From positions 1 through 38,680 of the forward strand of contig CALVEW010000001.1 of assembly GCA_944326645.1 (NCBI GenBank): a stretch of DNA of 38,680 bases. Direction: 5' to 3'. Every line of letters begins with the position of its first letter. Positions within the stretch are counted from its first letter, which is position 1. The position numbers were made by a program, and so were the translations under genes. Under the pieces are notes generated by a model. That model worked only from the letters and a program-made list of their open reading frames with translations. It did no database searches and had not been told where the DNA came from. The stretch is from Candidatus Gastranaerophilales bacterium (lineage in GTDB: Bacteria; Cyanobacteriota; Vampirovibrionia; Gastranaerophilales; Gastranaerophilaceae). Of this stretch, positions 4,117 through 26,526 are shown piece after piece.

Positions 4117-5808
4117 TTATTTGATATTTGAGAAAGTCCAAGCATCAAATGTAGGAGTTTCAGAAATATTTAATTCTTTCTTTTCTTCACCTGTACAAGA
4201 ATCATCATGAGCGATTGGTTTATACAATCTGTTATAGTATTCGATAACCATTCTATCAGAGTTGAAGTATCCTTCAGCAGTTCTGATAGCTTGACGCATC
4301 ATTCTAGCCCATTCAGGTTTGTTATTGTAGTAAGTAGGAATGATTTGGTCTTCGATAATACTCATAACGCATTCATGATCTTTCCAATGACGTTCTTCCC
4401 AAGGCATATCATCATCTAATCCTTCGTATTCAACAGTATAACCGTTGATTCCGTTGAATGTACCTTCAACAGTCCATCCATCAAAGATTGATAAGTGTAA
4501 TGCACCGTTTGCATTAGCAGACATACCTGAAGTTCCTGATGCTTCGAATGGTCTTAATGGAGTGTTTAACCAAATATCTGAACCACGTTTTAACATACCT
4601 GATAATTTTAATTCATAACCTGGTAAAACAACAACATTTTTCAATGTGTGTGAACGGTTCAATAATTTGTTGAACATTTCTTTACCCATTACATCATCCG
4701 GGTGGAACTTACCTGCGAAAATAATTTGGATTTTATTTTCATTTAATAATTTTTCGATTCTTTCCTTGTTCATTAAGATTAACCAAGCACGTTTGTAATC
4801 AGCAAATCTTCTTGCCCAAGTAATTGTTAATACGTTAGGATCGAATCTCTTACCTGCTACGTTTGCAATGTATTTGAATAATTTTTTCTTCATTTCTAAT
4901 TTAGCAGATAATAATTCTTCATCAGTAGAATCTCCTGACATTCTCTTATCTTGCCAGTAATGTAGGTTAACAGCGTTGGTGATAGCTCTGATTGGACATC
5001 TTCCATCAACCCATTCCCACATTTTGTTAGCAACTAAACCGTGTAATTGAGATACAGCGTTAGCAATTCTTGACATTCTTAAAGCAGCAACTGTTAATGA
5101 GAAGTTTTCTCCACCTAATTGTACAGCTCTTTCTCTTGAACATCCTGAGAAGAAACCACCTTCTAATAATGTATCTATCCAATGTACTTCGTTACCTGCT
5201 GCAACAGGAGTGTGAGTTGTAAATACAGTTTTCTTTTTAACTTCGTTTAAGTCACCGTTGTATTGTCTTAATAATTCAAATGCTGCAGGTAAAGCGTGAC
5301 CTTCGTTCATGTGAACTACATCAAAGTTATAACCAACTTTTTGTAATACTCTGATACCTGCAATACCTAAAATTGTTTCTTGAGCTATTCTGATTCTTTC
5401 ATCTCCATCATATAATCTGTGAGAGATTCTCTTAGCCCATTCGCTGTTTCCTTCGATATCTGTTGTTAGTAAATATACAGGGCAAGCTCCGAATAATTCA
5501 GGTTCTACTCTGTATGCTTTTACTTTAACTTTTTCTCCAAAAGTTTCTACTTCTACTGTAACATTAATATCAGTTAAGAAATCATAATATTTTCTGATAT
5601 AAGCTACTTCTACTTGTCCTGAATGATCGATACGTTGATCATAATAACCGTAAGACCATAACATTGTTACACCAACCATAGGCATTTGAAGATATCCTGC
5701 AGATAACATGTGAGAACCTGCTAAGAATCCTAAACCACCTGAGTAAGTTGATAATGATTGGTCTAGTGCAATTTCCATAGAAAAATACGCTACGTTTGGT
5801 AATGACAT
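4117..5808 (-). CDS. glgP: Alpha-glucan phosphorylase (GT35, short about 560-aa type)
   Basis: 563 aa. N-terminus AYFSMEIAL...YSGGLGFLAG and C-terminal EASGTSGMSANANGAL (PLP-Lys region) are typical of the alpha-glucan phosphorylase family. Codon choice looks like that of a highly expressed gene. Confidence 0.9.
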   Translation of the reverse strand: MSLPNVAYFSMEIALDQSLSTYSGGLGFLAGSHMLSAGYLQMPMVGVTMLWSYGYYDQRIDHSGQVEVAYIRKYYDFLTDINVTVEVETFGEKVKVKAYRVEPELFGACPVYLLTTDIEGNSEWAKRISHRLYDGDERIRIAQETILGIAGIRVLQKVGYNFDVVHMNEGHALPAAFELLRQYNGDLNEVKKKTVFTTHTPVAAGNEVHWIDTLLEGGFFSGCSRERAVQLGGENFSLTVAALRMSRIANAVSQLHGLVANKMWEWVDGRCPIRAITNAVNLHYWQDKRMSGDSTDEELLSAKLEMKKKLFKYIANVAGKRFDPNVLTITWARRFADYKRAWLILMNKERIEKLLNENKIQIIFAGKFHPDDVMGKEMFNKLLNRSHTLKNVVVLPGYELKLSGMLKRGSDIWLNTPLRPFEASGTSGMSANANGALHLSIFDGWTVEGTFNGINGYTVEYEGLDDDMPWEERHWKDHECVMSIIEDQIIPTYYNNKPEWARMMRQAIRTAEGYFNSDRMVIEYYNRLYKPIAHDDSCTGEEKKELNISETPTFDAWTFSNIK

Positions 5809-6010: not shown

Positions 6011-7000
6011 TTAATTCTTCAATATTATTTGACTTATGTCATGATAATCAAATTTTAAACAAGGTAATTCCATACATGAAATAGTTCTTCTTTCCCATAA
6101 ACATGGTTTATCAGGACATGTACAATTATTTTTTAGAGCTATTACATTTTCATTTTGAGGAATTAATTTTTTATCATCTGTTGGACCAAAAAATACATAT
6201 GTTTTTACACCTAAGCCAACAGCAATATGTAAAGGAGCAGAATCTGAACATACAAATTTTTCTGCAGATGATATTAATTCTGCTAATTCGGTTAAATTTT
6301 TTGTTGTTCCGTATAAATTTTCATAATCTTTATGTTTTGTATATTCTTCAATTTCTTTTATACAATCTTTATCATCAGGTCCACCAATCAAAATAACTTT
6401 TTTACCTGCTTCTTGTAATAAATCAACTAATTGAGCCCACTCATAGCCTTGTATTGTTTTAATGATACCTTTAATTCGGCTCATTCTGCTTACCCCGGGG
6501 TGAATGATTACAGAATTTGGAATTTTTTGTTTTATATTAATATCTAATATTGGTAATTCAGTAATTTGATTTGTTAATGGGGTTACTAAATCGTGATACA
6601 TTTTAGCTGCATATTGATTTTTATTCAATGTTACTGCATCTGTTAAAAGCATTTTGCTTAAACTTCCTGTATCAAAACCTATTCTTCTTGGTATAAATGT
6701 ACTTGCAGATATTACACTCATCATTGGATTTGCTCCTGATGTAATTATTGTGTCATATCCTCCAGTCATTCCATGAAAAATTAAACGAAGTAATTCTGTA
6801 TATTTGTTTTTTGTTTTGATATCTATGGTTAAAACTTCATCTATAATATCAGATAAATCTTTAATCCCTTTTGCTCGAGATTCTAAGGCTAATGTTATAT
6901 GTGAATCCGGATATTCTTTTTTTAATGACCATAGAGCCGGTAAAAATAATATCTCATCACCAATTCCGCCAAAATTTACTGCTAATATTTTTTTAACCAT
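6011..7000 (-). CDS. Glycosyltransferase family 9 (ADP-heptose:LPS heptosyltransferase-like)
   Basis: N-terminus KILAVNFGGIGDEILFLPAL and C-terminal DSAPLHIAVGLG are typical of GT9. Start moved to ATG 7000 (SD GAGGT 6 nt upstream) from the track's TTG at 7015. Confidence 0.85.
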   Translation of the reverse strand: MVKKILAVNFGGIGDEILFLPALWSLKKEYPDSHITLALESRAKGIKDLSDIIDEVLTIDIKTKNKYTELLRLIFHGMTGGYDTIITSGANPMMSVISASTFIPRRIGFDTGSLSKMLLTDAVTLNKNQYAAKMYHDLVTPLTNQITELPILDINIKQKIPNSVIIHPGVSRMSRIKGIIKTIQGYEWAQLVDLLQEAGKKVILIGGPDDKDCIKEIEEYTKHKDYENLYGTTKNLTELAELISSAEKFVCSDSAPLHIAVGLGVKTYVFFGPTDDKKLIPQNENVIALKNNCTCPDKPCLWERRTISCMELPCLKFDYHDISQIILKN

Positions 7001-7058
7001 ATTATTACCTCGCAAATATTATTTTAATATAAAAATTGATTATTGTTAATAAAATATA

Positions 7059-7126
7059 TTCCGTGCTATTTGTATGTTTTTCAAAAACATGATATTATAT
7101 TTAAAATACAACTTATAGCACGGGAA
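7059..7126. promoter_or_regulatory. Inverted repeat bracketing the XRE-gene promoter (candidate operator pair)
   Basis: TTCCGTGCTAT (7059-7069) and ATAGCACGGGAA (7115-7126). The 9-bp core CCGTGCTAT/ATAGCACGG is perfectly complementary. The arms abut the predicted -35 and the SD. Confidence 0.45.
7070..7098 (+). promoter_or_regulatory. Predicted promoter of the XRE-family gene
   Basis: TTGTAT, a 17-nt spacer, then TATTAT, with an extended-10 TG at 7090-7091. Confidence 0.4.
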
Positions 7127-7131
7127 ATGAA

Positions 7132-7350
7132 ATGAATCAAAATGAATTTATTATAAAAAGATTTAAAGAATTAAGAGAAGAATTTAATCTTTCTCCTGAT
7201 GAATTAGGAAAAAAGATGAGTAAAAATGGAAGTTATATAAATGCAATTGAACTTGGTTTAAAAAATGTTGGAATATTGCATGTTCTTAAATTATGTGAAG
7301 TTTTAAATATAGAGCCAAATAAGTTTTATGAAGGATATGTAGAAGAATAA
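7132..7350 (+). CDS. XRE/Cro-C1 family helix-turn-helix transcriptional regulator
   Basis: 72 aa. The pattern FKELREEFNLSPDELGKKMSKNGSYINAIELG matches HTH_3-type regulators. Confidence 0.8.
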   Translation: MNQNEFIIKRFKELREEFNLSPDELGKKMSKNGSYINAIELGLKNVGILHVLKLCEVLNIEPNKFYEGYVEE

Positions 7351-22364: not shown

Positions 22365-22550
22365 TTATTCAAAATGATGATATTTATATTTTGATGCAAT
22401 CTCTCTATTTGCTGCAGAAATTACACGGCTTACAAACGGATAAAAACGTGCATCACGAATTGGATTGCCATTTTCATCTGTTAAGGCAAATTTCGGATAT
22501 ATTGTTTCTTCTTCTTCAACGTATTCTTCTGTTGTAAGTTCTTCGTCCAT
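22365..22550 (-). CDS. Hypothetical 61-aa acidic protein
   Basis: SD AAGGT 5 nt upstream, inside the nanE 3' end. The start lies 1 nt after the nanE stop. Confidence 0.55.
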   Translation of the reverse strand: MDEELTTEEYVEEEETIYPKFALTDENGNPIRDARFYPFVSRVISAANREIASKYKYHHFE

Positions 22551-23433: not shown

Positions 23434-23589
23434 CTACAGTTTGAATTTTGTTCGGTTGTTAAATGCCAATATTCTCATCTCTTCAAATAAAATATCTCTT
23501 TGATCAGTTGGTTCTGCATCAAGCTTTTTAAATTCTTCAGATATTTCGTTTGCTTTTGCATTAATATCATAGATGTTCAATACTGCCAT
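23434..23589 (-). CDS. Hypothetical 51-aa helical protein (hand-translated)
   Basis: ATG 23589 with SD AGGTGAG 4-5 nt upstream. Product is MAVLNIYDINAKANEISEEFKKLDAEPTDQRDILFEEMRILAFNNRTKFKL. It has its own predicted promoter and terminator. Confidence 0.5.
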   Translation of the reverse strand: MAVLNIYDINAKANEISEEFKKLDAEPTDQRDILFEEMRILAFNNRTKFKL

Positions 23590-23656
23590 TGCTCTCACCT
23601 GCGATTCTTCTTAGTTTCTCTCTCTTAATATCTCTTGTGTTTATTTAATGCTTACT

Positions 23657-23685: not shown

Positions 23686-23818
23686 TTTCACATGTTTTGT
23701 TTTTTGTAATAATTGTTTACAAAAGGAGGTTGGTGGATTCAAGAAGACAGTAATCAAGGAATCAAGAGGGAACGACTTGTGACTCGGATTTTTATCCACT
23801 TTTTGGGATACACTTCAT

Positions 23819-23850
23819 CACCCTTTCCTAGGGAGAGGGTGGGGTGAGGG
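23819..23850 (+). other. G-tract element: 10-bp hairpin overlapping a canonical G-quadruplex motif
   Basis: CACCCTTTCC-tag-GGAGAGGGTG (23819-23841). It has one G:U pair on the + strand that would be a C-A mismatch on the - strand. GGGAGAGGGTGGGGTGAGGG (23831-23850) is four G3+ runs with loops of 1-3 nt. Confidence 0.5.
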
Positions 23851-23910
23851 TTAGTCAATTTAAACACTATTCAAAGTGTAGGGTACAATTTATTGCTCCA
23901 TACTACTATC

Positions 23911-23998
23911 ATATTGAATTTATTAAATGGTGGGCACGCATTCGCTTTGCCCACACTACTTACTTAGTAATTAACAAGAATAATTTGTTGGGTTGCAC
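23911..23998 (+). repeat. Direct repeat copy A (44-bp block, variable linker, 22-bp block)
   Basis: 23911-23954 is identical to 24403-24446, and 23977-23998 is identical to 24454-24475. Contains the hairpin GTGGGCA-N11-TGCCCAC. Copy A also has GTTGGGT-tgc-ACCCAAC. Confidence 0.9.
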
Positions 23999-24023
23999 CC
24001 AACCTACAACTTGCTAATAAATA

Positions 24024-24032
24024 TGATATAAT
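24024..24032 (+). promoter_or_regulatory. Extended -10 promoter TGaTATAAT of the ORF24 transcript
   Basis: Perfect TGnTATAAT. The -35 region is weak. Predicted +1 is near A24039. Confidence 0.45.
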
Positions 24033-24108
24033 TATTTAAAGGGTAACACTCACACTTACCACCGACACACGCAGTAGAATGGAAACTGGTCGGAAAGGGG
24101 GTGATACT

Positions 24109-24183
24109 ATGGAAAGATATCAATTAAAAAGTGCTATCAAGCTACTGATAACACTTTTACAAATAATTGACATTTTACTGTAG
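24109..24183 (+). CDS. 24-aa hydrophobic/amphipathic peptide, candidate type I toxin (module 1)
   Basis: AAGGGGGTGAT (near-perfect extended anti-16S complement) lies 4-5 nt before ATG 24109. Product is MERYQLKSAIKLLITLLQIIDILL. Hand-translated. Confidence 0.45.
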   Translation: MERYQLKSAIKLLITLLQIIDILL

Positions 24184-24224
24184 GGAGTGAATGGTTCAGG
24201 AATTAGCACTTCCTGAACTCCCTT
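24126..24224 (-). ncRNA. Predicted antisense RNA of about 99 nt, convergent with and overlapping the 3' half of the ORF24 mRNA
   Basis: +1 is predicted at 24224 from the promoter at 24231-24258. It ends at a 10-bp stem AGUGUUAUCA/UGAUAGCACU (one G:U pair) plus U4-5, at 24155-24126, inside the ORF24 coding sequence. Confidence 0.45.
24183..24222 (+). terminator. 3' stem-loop of the ORF24 transcript
   Basis: GGGA-(7-nt bulge)-GTTCAGGAA-ttagcac-TTCCTGAAC-TCCC, starting inside the stop codon. The downstream tail TTATTAATATT is A/T-rich rather than a clean T-run. Confidence 0.45.
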
Positions 24225-24230
24225 ATTAAT

Positions 24231-24258
24231 ATTATACCGTATTTTTACATTTTTTCAA
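24231..24258 (-). promoter_or_regulatory. Near-consensus promoter of antisense RNA 1
   Basis: On the - strand, TTGAAA, a 16-nt spacer, then TATAAT. Confidence 0.5.
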
Positions 24259-24402
24259 TATTATCCTAAATTTCAATATTAATAATAGTTTCAGATAAGA
24301 AGCCAATAGATATGTATGATTTGTTAATCAGAGAACAAAATTGTTTGTCAGTATAGCAATGCTAACCTTGCTTACTAAAAAGTTTTGTTTTGTTGTGCTA
24401 TA

Positions 24403-24475
24403 ATATTGAATTTATTAAATGGTGGGCACGCATTCGCTTTGCCCACCATACTTAGAATAATTTGTTGGGTTGCAC
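24403..24475 (+). repeat. Direct repeat copy B
   Basis: See copy A. The hairpin GGTGGGCA-N11-TGCCCACC lies about 60 nt downstream of the 189-aa gene stop on the - strand and may act as its terminator. TGcTATAAT (24396-24404) abuts the left repeat edge. Confidence 0.9.
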
Positions 24476-24505
24476 TACTTACTAATTTTATTCTAATTTT
24501 TGCAC

Positions 24506-25075
24506 TCAAGTTTTACCATTACCAATCATGTCTTTTAAAGAATCAGCCATATGATCATAAAGGAAAACTTCTGAGTGAATTATTTTCATATTTTCTCCTT
24601 CACCTCTTGTGATTGTAAATAGAATTGAGTTATCAGGGAAATTCTTATCTATTTCTTTCAATGTAGAACTAGAACCATGAGTAAGTGTCATTGAATCGCC
24701 ACGCGAAGCAATTCCAGATTTATAAACAGATTTAAGCCTATTGTACATATCTTCATAAGTTACATTCTCAATTTTTGAAACACCATTAGCAGAAGCTTTT
24801 TTTGCAGCCTTATAAGATTTAACATCTAGTCCTACTTTGCTAGCAGCTTTTTCTAATTCTTTGAAGGCAGACTTATTTTTTATTGCCAAACCAGCAATTA
24901 CTGCTACTGCAAGAGCTCCTGCTCCAATACCTACCTTCATGCCGGTACTCATCTTTTTGTCATTGTTTTCTGCAGGTTTTTGAGAAGAAGTATTGTCTAT
25001 CGGTTTTGAAGCAACTGTATTTACACCATTACCCAAATTTGTTCCACTTACATTTAAACCAGTTACACCAGACAT
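24506..25075 (-). CDS. Hypothetical 189-aa single-pass membrane protein
   Basis: Start set to ATG 25075 (SD AAGGAAGG 6 nt upstream) rather than the track start at 25120. Gly/Asn/Ser-rich N-terminus, one TM segment GMKVGIGAGALAVAVIAGLAI, and a C-domain of about 110 aa. No recognised family. Confidence 0.7.
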   Translation of the reverse strand: MSGVTGLNVSGTNLGNGVNTVASKPIDNTSSQKPAENNDKKMSTGMKVGIGAGALAVAVIAGLAIKNKSAFKELEKAASKVGLDVKSYKAAKKASANGVSKIENVTYEDMYNRLKSVYKSGIASRGDSMTLTHGSSSTLKEIDKNFPDNSILFTITRGEGENMKIIHSEVFLYDHMADSLKDMIGNGKT

Positions 25076-25172
25076 AATTAACCTTCCTTTTATTTTGTTT
25101 CTATATTTATATAAAAACAAGGAAAAATATTAATTTGCCCGCCCCGCCACATCATATCATATCATATAGCAG

Positions 25173-25200
25173 ATTATACCTGAGTTTCAGCCTTTGCAAA
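25173..25200 (-). promoter_or_regulatory. Predicted promoter of the 189-aa gene
   Basis: On the - strand, TTTGCA, a 16-nt spacer, then a perfect TATAAT. This gives a leader of about 90 nt. Confidence 0.4.
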
Positions 25201-25256
25201 ACCATTTTAATATTTCGTTACATTATTAATACCTTGCAAATGCTATTTAATTTAAA

Positions 25257-25285
25257 TAGACAAATAAAAGTAAATATAGTAATAT
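25257..25285 (+). promoter_or_regulatory. Promoter of the ORF29 transcript
   Basis: TAGACA, a 17-nt spacer, then TAATAT. Predicted +1 is at A25292. Confidence 0.5.
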
Positions 25286-25382
25286 GATTCCACAGGGTAA
25301 AAGTAACTCTTTTCAAAAGGAAAGCTAACCAACAAAATTAGTTAAGACTTCGGGTTAGCTCCCGACTAGAAGGGAGGTCTAT

Positions 25383-25472
25383 ATGGATAATTTCAATATT
25401 AGTTTATTATTAATCTTTCTGATTTTATACATATTAAAAAACGGCTCTTACCCAAAAGGCAAGAACCGCTAA
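25383..25472 (+). CDS. 29-aa hydrophobic peptide with a basic tail, candidate type I toxin (module 2)
   Basis: SD GGGAGG lies 5 nt before ATG 25383. Product is MDNFNISLLLIFLILYILKNGSYPKGKNR. Hand-translated. Confidence 0.5.
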   Translation: MDNFNISLLLIFLILYILKNGSYPKGKNR

Positions 25473-25516
25473 GACTTCTACAGAGTTATTGACAGTCTAG
25501 CAAACTGTCACCCTGT
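25436..25516 (-). ncRNA. Predicted antisense RNA of about 81 nt, convergent with and overlapping the 3' end of the ORF29 mRNA
   Basis: +1 is predicted at 25516. It ends at an 11-bp stem CGGUUCUUGCC/GGUAAGAGCCG (two G:U pairs that are C-A mismatches on the + strand), loop UUUUG, then U6 (25468-25436), inside the ORF29 coding sequence. Confidence 0.5.
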
Positions 25517-25530
25517 ATATTTATTATTTA
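25491..25530 (+). terminator. 3' stem-loop and T-rich tail of the ORF29 transcript
   Basis: GACAGT-ctagcaa-ACTGTC (25491-25509), then ACCCTGTATATTTATTATTT. Confidence 0.4.
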
Positions 25531-25551
25531 CTATGTTCCTAAATTTGTCAA
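25523..25551 (-). promoter_or_regulatory. Near-consensus promoter of antisense RNA 2
   Basis: On the - strand, a perfect TTGACA, a 17-nt spacer, then AATAAT. Confidence 0.55.
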
Positions 25552-25641
25552 TCCCGTGACTATTTTAAAGATTTAATTAGAAATAATAAAAATATAACAA
25601 ACTTATCAAAATGAGATTTTTATAATTTAGTTATAAAATCC

Positions 25642-26526
25642 TTATTTTACACTTACTAAATCATGCATTATGATGTTTCTGATGTAACTGTAATAAGGAT
25701 TATTTCCATATTTTTCAATTCTGTTTAATAAATCAGGTGCAGAAATAAAACCTTGATTATATGCAATTTCTTCTAAACAAGAAATTTTTGCACCGGTATT
25801 CAATTCCATAGATTTAACAAAATTGCTTGCCTGCAACATTGAATCATGAGTTCCTGTATCTAACCAAGCAAAACCTCGTCCTAGAATTTCTACATTTAAC
25901 ATTCCACGTTCTAAGTACATTTTGTTCAAATCTGTAATTTCTAATTCGCCTCTATCTGATGGCATTAATTGTTTTGCAAAATCACATACGTTAGAATCAT
26001 AGAAATATAAGCCTGTTACTGCATAACTTGATTTTGGATTTTTTGGTTTTTCTTCTAATGATATGGCTTTTTTATTTTTATCAAATTCTATTACACCAAA
26101 TCTTTCAGGGTCTTTAACCAAATAACCGAATACAGTTGCACCGTGATTTGATGTAATCGCTTCCTTCATCATTGTTGAGAAACCGTGACCGTGGAATATG
26201 TTATCACCAAGTATCAACGCAACATCTTCTCCGTTTATAAAATCTTCTGCAATAATAAAGGCATCTGCGATACCATTTTGAATATATTGAATCTTATATG
26301 ATAACTTGATACCAAATTGTGAACCATCACCTAAAACTTTTATAAAATTATCATAGTCAGTTTCATTTGTAATAATTAAAATGTCCTTTATCCCTGCTAA
26401 CATTAGAGTAGACAATGGATAATAAATCATTGGTTTATCATATATTGGTAACAAAATTTTTGAAATCGGTTGAGATGCAGGGTATAATCTTGTTCCTGCT
26501 CCTGCTGCTAAAATGATACCTTTCAT
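25642..26526 (-). CDS. rfbA: Glucose-1-phosphate thymidylyltransferase
   Basis: The N-terminus MKGIILAAGAGTRLYPASQPISKILLPIYDKPMIYYPLSTLMLAGI is near-canonical RmlA. 294 aa. Confidence 0.95.
   Translation of the reverse strand: MKGIILAAGAGTRLYPASQPISKILLPIYDKPMIYYPLSTLMLAGIKDILIITNETDYDNFIKVLGDGSQFGIKLSYKIQYIQNGIADAFIIAEDFINGEDVALILGDNIFHGHGFSTMMKEAITSNHGATVFGYLVKDPERFGVIEFDKNKKAISLEEKPKNPKSSYAVTGLYFYDSNVCDFAKQLMPSDRGELEITDLNKMYLERGMLNVEILGRGFAWLDTGTHDSMLQASNFVKSMELNTGAKISCLEEIAYNQGFISAPDLLNRIEKYGNNPYYSYIRNIIMHDLVSVK

Follow-up and report, generated by a model that had tools for sequence, protein, structure and literature searches.

Module 1, a compact locus in a 38,680-nucleotide (nt) stretch of DNA from a Candidatus Gastranaerophilales bacterium (GenBank assembly GCA_944326645.1, contig CALVEW010000001.1, positions 1 to 38,680; this whole stretch is called the window below), is probably a type I toxin-antitoxin-like gene pair. 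Both of its RNAs, and its peptide, are predicted. The plus strand would give a short mRNA encoding a hydrophobic peptide of 24 amino acids (aa) that resembles ShoB of Escherichia coli. The minus strand would give a convergent antisense RNA that ends inside the coding sequence. Its relatives place module 1 in a family, not described before, of gut Melainabacteria and their phages.

The arrangement had been proposed in an earlier note made from the letters of the window, which also pointed to a second module of like organisation nearby (module 2, 25257-25551). The features that it listed are confirmed as real. On direct reading, an extended -10 box (TGATATAAT) predicting a start near 24039, a CCGAC/GTCGG stem in the leader, a Shine-Dalgarno (SD) sequence (AAGGGGGTGAT), a 24-aa open reading frame (ORF) encoding MERYQLKSAIKLLITLLQIIDILL, and a stem-loop after that ORF are all present on the plus strand. 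So, on the minus strand, is the promoter TTGAAA-16-TATAAT, which agrees with consensus at 11 of 12 positions (Table 1). The interpretation placed on these features is supported by the sequence comparisons that follow.

Relatives were sought with a pattern that generalises modules 1 and 2: a 5' AGGGTAA, a gap, an SD, and ATGGA. In the window, this pattern finds only the module 1 and module 2 sites, and an nhmmer profile finds a single copy of module 1. The earlier note had suggested a search for further short hydrophobic ORFs behind an AGGGTAA leader, and beyond the window many were found. Among GTDB genomes, taken one per species, the pattern matched 100 stretches, and gut genomes of Candidatus Gastranaerophilales, Melainabacteria or Vampirovibrio account for about 60 of these. 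Nearly all of those ~60 carry peptides of the module-2 type, such as MDNFNISLLLIFLILYILKNGSYLNR; one, L092, is of the module-1 type. The window has no long nucleotide match to the GTDB Gastranaerophilales and Melainabacteria genomes that the pattern retrieved.

Relatives of module 1 itself came from a metagenome scan that used only the 5' motif and the SD, from a scan of viral contigs with a related pattern, and from nhmmer run over all fetched sequence. The retrieval patterns left the ORF and the 3' side unconstrained. About 20 distinct relatives were recovered, in gut metagenomes, Gastranaerophilales or Melainabacteria genomes, phage contigs and one GenBank phage. All of them have an ORF of 24-25 aa, the TAG-GG stop context, and a 3' hairpin; examples of their peptides are MKRQIIKSAIKVLIALLTFICCFL, MRIRQIIKAAIIAVIAALKIVLLFL, MTKTIIKTAITVIITVLQIVIYWL, MKRDIIKRALNAVGLFLQMISLFI, MDNRIIKAAITAIIAALQIVILYL and MKRQIIKSALIGLEALLKVILLFL. 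IMG/VR viral contigs, 19-38 kb long, hold at least 15 of them, and in L138 and L151 the module has phage tail genes around it (sheath/tube, assembly chaperone, tape measure). Some contigs hold two or three copies of module 1, partly in tandem.

Module 2 has the layout of module 1, including the 5' AGGGUAA. The common organisation that the earlier note read into the pair therefore stands, as does the shared AGGGTAA motif, which is family-wide; indeed, a module-1 copy adjoins module-2 copies in several Gastranaerophilales genomes. The note went on to suggest a small paralogous family. Here, the shared architecture holds, and the word "small" does not: Gastranaerophilales/Melainabacteria and their phages carry a superfamily that is large. 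The peptides of the two modules are not detectably related (-0.8 bits).

Among GenBank phages, BLAST with the window module returned only a spurious Vibrio phage match, and tblastn with a family peptide returned nothing. Use of a more typical member (L141) in blastn led to Dulem virus 31. This 35.8-kb circular phage (PP511318.1, L213 3480-3730) carries an unannotated module-1 homologue encoding MNNVTIKIAITVIIAILQIILHCL, which annotated "hypothetical proteins" overlap in other frames. Its taxonomy line reads Microviridae, yet it encodes baseplate and tail proteins.

The 24-aa ORF is contained in a 34-aa ORF listed by program. An in-frame ATG upstream, at 24079, is not conserved among homologues, which makes the 24-aa reading the right one. 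The length of 24-25 codons, the frame, and the TAG-GG stop context are kept, and the sole insertion or deletion is of one codon, in frame. Thus, the ORF kept in about 20 homologues is what one looks for in a type I toxin gene: small (<60 aa), hydrophobic, and provided with its own ribosome-binding site. The last 17 residues of the window peptide have a grand average of hydropathicity of 2.04. Close pairs of homologues give ratios of nonsynonymous to synonymous change (pN/pS) of 0.12 (L117/L119), 0.34 (L092/L153) and 0.36 (L115/L138b); such ratios (like dN/dS, for substitution rates) are convincing as coding evidence for close pairs only. The peptides match nothing in Pfam or NCBIfam at E up to 10, a null that is uninformative with respect to ShoB, which is itself unmatched there for want of a model. 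By exact-product look-up, neither the 34-aa ORF nor the 190-aa neighbour of the module is on record.

By sequence, the family is specifically ShoB-like. The E. coli ShoB sequence (MTDCRYLIKRVIKIIIAVLQLILLFL) was checked against the K-12 annotation. BLASTP aligns the window peptide to it with 9/18 identities (pairwise E 2e-5), and hhalign aligns the family profile to it with a probability of 96.9% and E = 1.8e-10, the alignment reaching both C-termini. In hmmsearch, ShoB scores 28.1 bits, and the best of 20,000 composition-matched shuffles reaches 18.1. A hidden Markov model (HMM) of 15 members, built without the window, gives ShoB 29.7 bits, the window peptide 17.5, and the best of 10,426 natural small ORFs 9.1. 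The window copy is among the more divergent members. None of ZorO, TisB, DinQ, Ibs, Ldr, Fst, PepA1, module 2 and a third peptide family (below) exceeds 7.6 bits; the seven toxin sequences served as controls only.

Size agrees as well, since ShoB has 26 aa and the family peptides 24-25, with a likeness that extends to the C-terminus (compare RYLIKRVIKIIIAVLQLILLFL with RYQLKSAIKLLITLLQIIDILL and RQIIKAAIIAVIAALKIVLLFL). Both place a Lys/Gln polar stripe on a hydrophobic helix. ShoB is toxic (PMC2887945). The likeness may be one of homology or one of convergence, helices of 24 residues being too short to decide between them.

The antisense partner, however, is arranged otherwise than in E. coli. 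There, OhsC is divergent, lies upstream of shoB without overlapping it, and pairs with the long 5' untranslated region (UTR) of shoB (PMC2887945, PMC8594479). In module 1, the predicted antisense RNA runs convergently, across the 3' UTR and the ORF. The 5' UTR is only ~70 nt long, and the OhsC arrangement, with a divergent, non-overlapping small RNA (sRNA), is not seen. Reading of the shoB locus showed no resemblance at the nucleotide level, and the family described here belongs to Melainabacteria and their phages.

The mRNA predicted from the plus strand would be folded into a closed structure. A -10 box matching at 5/6 or better stands 5-8 nt 5' of AGGGTAA in 10 of 15 family members. The sense RNA (24039-24230) has a minimum free energy (MFE) of -57.4 kcal/mol (z = -5.85), with 5' AAGGG paired to 3' CCCUU. 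Seven elements are common to RNAalifold and to per-sequence MFE folds. These are the closing helix between 5' AGGG and 3' CCCU, a helix between the leader and the sequence after the stop codon, an anti-SD:SD helix, the leader hairpin, a pairing of the AUG with the ORF end, an ORF-internal hairpin, and the 3'-UTR hairpin. The individual MFE folds of 12 members have one architecture, and the closing helix is there in 11. Per-sequence folds were used because the MAFFT alignment of the 12 sequences misaligns the 3' UTR, where RNAalifold then loses helices.

In an alignment of eight sequences, 93.3% of cells are paired. Sixteen pairs are altered on both sides, whereas shuffles give 7.8 +/- 1.6 (0/500) and slid controls 2-7; these counts are biased towards the structure, which was derived from the same alignment. 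The CACTC of the leader pairs with GAGTG (24185-24189), directly 3' of the stop codon, and homologues keep this helix with altered sequence (GACC/GGUC, GUACC/GGUAU, ACAUCC/GGGUGU). The anti-SD and the SD covary, CUCCC/GGGGG becoming CCUCC or CUUCC/GGAGG in three members (column 22/65: CG 7, UA 3). In the leader hairpin, pairs 27/58, 28/57, 29/56 and 37/53 have both sides altered among members. The SD itself is kept as GAAAGG(G/A)GGTGA in all members, including L024, L138b, L114, L075 and Dulem virus, which were not selected by pattern. In homologues, the sense strand is the more stable for the 3'-UTR hairpin, by a mean of 2.9 kcal/mol, and for the leader, by 4.2 kcal/mol.

Thus, a toxin-mRNA structure that would limit translation by sequestering the SD and the AUG, as type I systems have, is found here in silico. 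Further, UAGGG at the stop codon and the 5' AGGG both have the 3' CCCU as their partner, a competition that hints at a conformational switch of the hok or aapA1 kind.

The evidence for an antisense gene is of the same kind. Its promoter scores 9-11/12 in 15/15 family members, at a fixed site just past the mRNA 3' CCCU, and is mostly nearer to consensus than the sense promoter. The predicted RNA would be fully complementary, over ~105 nt, to the mRNA 3' UTR, the stop codon, and codons 6-24, leaving the SD and the AUG uncovered. Taken from 24224 to 24115, it folds with an MFE of -40.5 kcal/mol (z = -7.85) into two hairpins, the second followed by a U-run.

That this RNA ends within the ORF agrees with the earlier note, which had given its final stem 10 base pairs (bp); the stem is longer, at 14 bp. 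The note had also cautioned that the strand specificity of this terminator was weaker than in module 2. The family removes that caution. In 8/8 members tested, the ORF-internal hairpin has a perfect stem of 13-15 bp and a U-run on the antisense strand, and its sense-strand version always has a C-A mismatch and is weaker by a mean of 4.4-5.1 kcal/mol. Because the stem is perfect on the antisense strand only, the ORF-internal hairpin is read as the antisense terminator. Six of its pairs are altered on both sides. The predicted antisense RNA would therefore come from a gene with its own promoter and a strand-specific terminator, as a type I antitoxin does. Cross-regulation between the antisense RNAs of modules 1 and 2, which the note had raised, is not predicted, since their duplex energies lie within ~1 standard deviation of shuffles.

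Among known systems, the layout is that of TxpA/RatA, BsrG/SR4 and YonT/SR6 (B. subtilis, prophage-borne) and of SprG/SprF (S. aureus). These, too, have a convergent 3' cis-antisense RNA overlapping the 3' UTR and the ORF end, and a location in prophages or genomic islands. In bsrG, as here, the SD is sequestered within the toxin mRNA; bsrG is degraded by RNase III. A 3' overlap that includes the ORF defines the class of TxpA/RatA, BsrE/G/H, YonT and SprG/SprF in Gram-positive bacteria (PMC8594479). However, the peptides of the TxpA/RatA and BsrG/SR4 group are unrelated and longer (38-59 aa), and homology to that group was not found, the module matching nothing in Rfam, Pfam or NCBIfam. In Rfam, the window as a whole had no match at gathering thresholds, and the genomic island that holds the module gave nothing above noise when E up to 10 was allowed. 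The module also differs from that group in having its antisense terminator in the middle of the coding sequence, an mRNA closed by a 5'-3' helix, and a host from a different phylum.

In hok/sok and aapA1/IsoA1, long-distance 5'-3' pairing and SD sequestration keep the full-length mRNA inert. Module 1 shares both features, together with the possibility of alternative pairings (here, UAGGG at the stop and 5' AGGG both match 3' CCCU). Sok and IsoA, in contrast, pair with the 5' region of their targets, the toxins are unrelated, and activation by 3' processing is a feature of those systems. The type I toxins of Clostridioides difficile are prophage-borne or near CRISPR arrays, multi-copy, short, hydrophobic, and Lys-rich, with overlapping antisense RNAs (PMC5961336, PMC6563280). 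Module 1 resembles them in being prophage-borne and multi-copy, with a short hydrophobic Lys-rich peptide and an overlapping antisense RNA; no sequence similarity was detected, and RNA scaffold and host phylum differ.

From these parts, a mechanism can be proposed. A weak extended -10 promoter would give an mRNA of ~188 nt (24039 to ~24226) encoding an amphipathic, membrane-directed, ShoB-like peptide of 24 residues. This mRNA would be translationally silent by virtue of three pairings: 5' AGGG with 3' CCCU, anti-SD with SD, and the AUG region with the ORF end. A stronger, near-consensus promoter past the mRNA 3' end would give a convergent antisense RNA of ~100 nt (24224 to ~24120), a perfect complement of the hairpin in the 3' UTR, of the stop codon, and of two thirds of the ORF. 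In excess, the antisense RNA would pair with the mRNA, probably starting by loop-loop contact at the 3' hairpin, and the duplex would be degraded, by analogy with the RNase III cleavage of TxpA/RatA and BsrG/SR4. Should the labile antisense RNA be lost, the mRNA would be translated and the peptide would depolarise the membrane, as ShoB does. The module is carried by phages and small genomic islands, and its role would likely be maintenance of these elements, or phage-related exclusion or defence.

Several observations weigh against reading module 1 as a toxin-antitoxin pair. The hydrophobic segment is only ~17 residues long and has K, Q and D inside it. Between distant members pN/pS is ~1; this is to be expected, since the overlapping RNA constrains synonymous sites and hydrophobic residues interchange freely. 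The conserved I-I-K of the peptide is ATA ATA AAA, which on the other strand is the U-tract of the antisense terminator, and the peptide may owe some of its conservation to that terminator. Both the 5' motif and the SD were demanded by the first two retrieval patterns, so that the conservation of these elements rests mainly on members not selected by pattern (L024, L138b, L114, L029, L075 and the GenBank phage PP511318.1, found by HMM or BLAST). The resemblance to ShoB could be a convergence of very short amphipathic helices. The antisense RNA leaves the SD and the AUG free, and the mode of repression is therefore argued by analogy only; in principle, its pairing with the ORF end could even release the AUG. 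Last, the mRNA has no canonical U-tract terminator, and its 3' end is read from the conserved 5'-3' helix.

With these points in view, other explanations must be weighed. Many copies lie inside phage tail-gene clusters, in late-gene orientation, and many small membrane proteins are not toxins, the toxicity of this one being predicted. Both facts would suit a regulated, non-toxic small membrane protein, a phage "moron" peptide (serving, for example, superinfection exclusion, holin timing, or transporter modulation) whose expression the antisense RNA tunes. However, threefold silencing of translation coupled to a conserved, stronger, constitutive-looking antisense promoter is a hallmark of toxins that are kept off. 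The peptide is, moreover, specifically like ShoB, a proven toxin, and tandem arrays and presence or absence of the island are typical of type I loci. We regard the non-toxic protein as unlikely.

Still less probable, in our view, is an element that works purely through RNA, as structured sense and antisense sRNAs or as a phage regulatory RNA, with the ORF a by-product of RNA constraints. In favour of it, both strands have a conserved and very strong RNA structure, distant members give a pN/pS near 1, and the peptide motif partly coincides with the terminator. Such an element would not, however, need an invariant SD of 11-12 nt at the right distance from an ATG and masked by a covarying anti-SD, since such masking makes sense only if ribosome access matters. 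Nor would it keep ORF length, frame and stop in ~20 copies despite stop-rich, AT-rich DNA, or place close pairs under purifying selection (pN/pS 0.12-0.36), and the cassettes that replace the ORF on the same scaffold (below) are again short hydrophobic Lys-rich ORFs. As for chance, by which promoter-like and hairpin-like sequences would merely have come together in AT-rich intergenic DNA, the matches taken singly are no commoner than expected in DNA of ~30% GC: the window has 17 promoter-like matches versus 12.5 +/- 3.7 expected, and 8 occurrences of TGNTATAAT versus 6.4 expected. But the fold z-scores are -5.9 and -7.9, and the elements keep their positions across diverged homologues, with compensatory changes. 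Because their position is kept, the features are not products of chance; the comparative data refute that explanation, to which we give next to no credence. The type I toxin-antitoxin-like pair thus stays the reading that we prefer.

Table 1. Position (in the window, unless a locus handle is given), strand and remarks for the predicted features of module 1, for its surroundings, and for other ORF cassettes found on the same scaffold in related loci.
Extended -10 box TGATATAAT of the peptide mRNA	24024-24032	+	predicted +1 = 24039 +/- 1
Predicted peptide (toxin) mRNA	24039-24226	+	~188 nt, closed multi-helix fold
5' motif AGGGTAA plus CACTC	24040-24051	+	AAGGG pairs with CCCTT (24220-24224)
Anti-SD stretch CACTT-CC	24053-24060	+	pairs with SD core GGGGGTG (24097-24103)
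Leader hairpin CCGAC...GTCGG	24062-24093	+	arms 24062-24066 and 24089-24093
Shine-Dalgarno AAGGGGGTGAT	24095-24105	+	11 nt, ATG at 24109
24-codon ORF MERYQLKSAIKLLITLLQIIDILL plus TAG	24109-24183	+	predicted ShoB-like peptide; TAG at 24181-24183
3'-UTR hairpin of the mRNA	24193-24219	+	flanked by GGGAG and CUCCC; complement is the antisense RNA 5' hairpin
Antisense promoter TTGAAA-16-TATAAT	24258-24231	-	11/12 match, +1 at 24224
Predicted antisense (antitoxin) RNA	24120-24224	-	~100-105 nt
Antisense intrinsic terminator	24120-24158	-	14-bp stem (24127-24158) and U-rich tail, inside ORF codons 7-17
Variable island	23725-25642		~1.9 kb; module 1, module 2, 190-aa ORF, repeat x2
190-aa ORF between the modules	24506-25078	-	no Pfam or NCBIfam family
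Direct repeat, two copies	23906-23998 and 24398-24475		bracketing module 1, 492 nt apart
Small ORFs of 51-54 aa and 61 aa flanking nanE	23434-23598, 22365-22550	-	no family match
Other cassette MISVALLLCMRLKEKIPVLEILEFILIKS	L091 690-916
Other cassette MSLLLFQLFDLLVKKLKKPQSWNSWSFF	L155 1497-1730
Other cassette MDLLIYLFLDYLIQKYKKKVPDLELLELFIKS	L024 3720-3960
Other cassette MIDKIIMLLISFDLLLVALKLLVKS	L042 7392-7583, L027 4889-5080

The module 1 scaffold (5' UTR, TAG-GGT stop context, 3' hairpin, antisense promoter) is also found in related loci with unrelated short hydrophobic Lys-rich ORFs (Table 1). In L091, the one cassette examined for it, a hairpin and U-run on the antisense strand were read inside the ORF. 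By sequence, this suggests a modular scaffold with exchangeable toxin cassettes.

Module 2 belongs to a family of 26-aa peptides, matched in ~60 species-level Gastranaerophilales/Melainabacteria genomes. Its homology spans exactly promoter to promoter, ~300 nt, and tandem arrays reach four copies (L024 2419-4328; L055 5232-6382). The layout of 5' AGGGTAA, SD and convergent promoter recurs in a third peptide family (MEFNVTEKALILILMIVVALKFQK; L027 ~4450-4700; L042 ~6950-7200; L082). This family is hosted by "Clostridium sp. CAG:967", the Gastranaerophilales genome HGM07947, and Candidatus Stercorousia.

The same architecture was also seen in L049 and L073 (Oscillospiraceae, termite gut; Firmicutes). 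These have AAGGGTAA at +1, a leader hairpin, a strong SD, a hydrophobic ORF of 22-25 aa ending in KK, and a 3' GCCCTT; in L073, the one of the two examined for it, a convergent TTGACA promoter was read just downstream. The scaffold may not be confined to Melainabacteria.

The island that holds both modules is variable. It is present in the near-identical metagenome contigs L001, L008 and L012, and also in L002 and L003, contigs of 95% identity in which module 1 itself is unchanged (100% identical). L004, L010 and L011, with flanks 99% identical, lack the island; there, a terminator-like hairpin of ~60 nt instead joins the RmlA gene to the genes on the NanE side. The island contains no integrase or transposase.

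The 190-aa ORF between the modules combines a region of low complexity at its N-terminus with a single hydrophobic segment rich in Gly and Ala. No other part of the island varies as much, and in relatives the ORF has 189-195 aa. The two copies of the direct repeat show 95% identity over 57 nt and ~80% over 93 nt. The hairpin GGTGGGCA-N11-TGCCCACC is present in each, and TGCTATAAT (24396-24404) comes before the second. None of the other fetched loci was found to contain this repeat, which may have been left by a tandem duplication or may be a terminator on the minus strand. Both small ORFs flanking nanE are called as genes in all related contigs.

Type I systems are considered narrow in their distribution and difficult to detect. 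To our knowledge, nearly all work on them has dealt with Proteobacteria and Firmicutes, and in the literature searched no paper links Melainabacteria with type I toxins. Module 1 points to a ShoB-like family in an uncultured Cyanobacteria-related phylum and its phages. A ShoB-like peptide joined to an antisense layout so far classed as Gram-positive bears on the independent evolution of toxins and antitoxin RNAs. Here also, the intrinsic terminator of one strand would be embedded in the peptide-coding sequence of the other, a case of dual coding. Such genes are missed by current annotation, as with the copy in PP511318.1, and the conserved RNA scaffold is a handle for finding many more loci in metagenomes.

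These observations can be joined in a broader reading, which we offer tentatively and at somewhat less than even odds. Cassettes would be swapped on one scaffold, composed of the 5' AGGGUAA, the anti-SD leader, the TAG-GGU stop context, the 3' hairpin, the CCCU 3' end, and the adjacent antisense promoter. A terminator would be written into the coding sequence of each cassette, so that RNA and peptide constrain each other, and one cassette would be a true homologue of E. coli ShoB. If this is true, ShoB would be an old toxin spread by phages, not a recent enterobacterial invention. A toxin could then persist while its antisense partner is exchanged, along with the position of that partner (5' divergent or 3' convergent).

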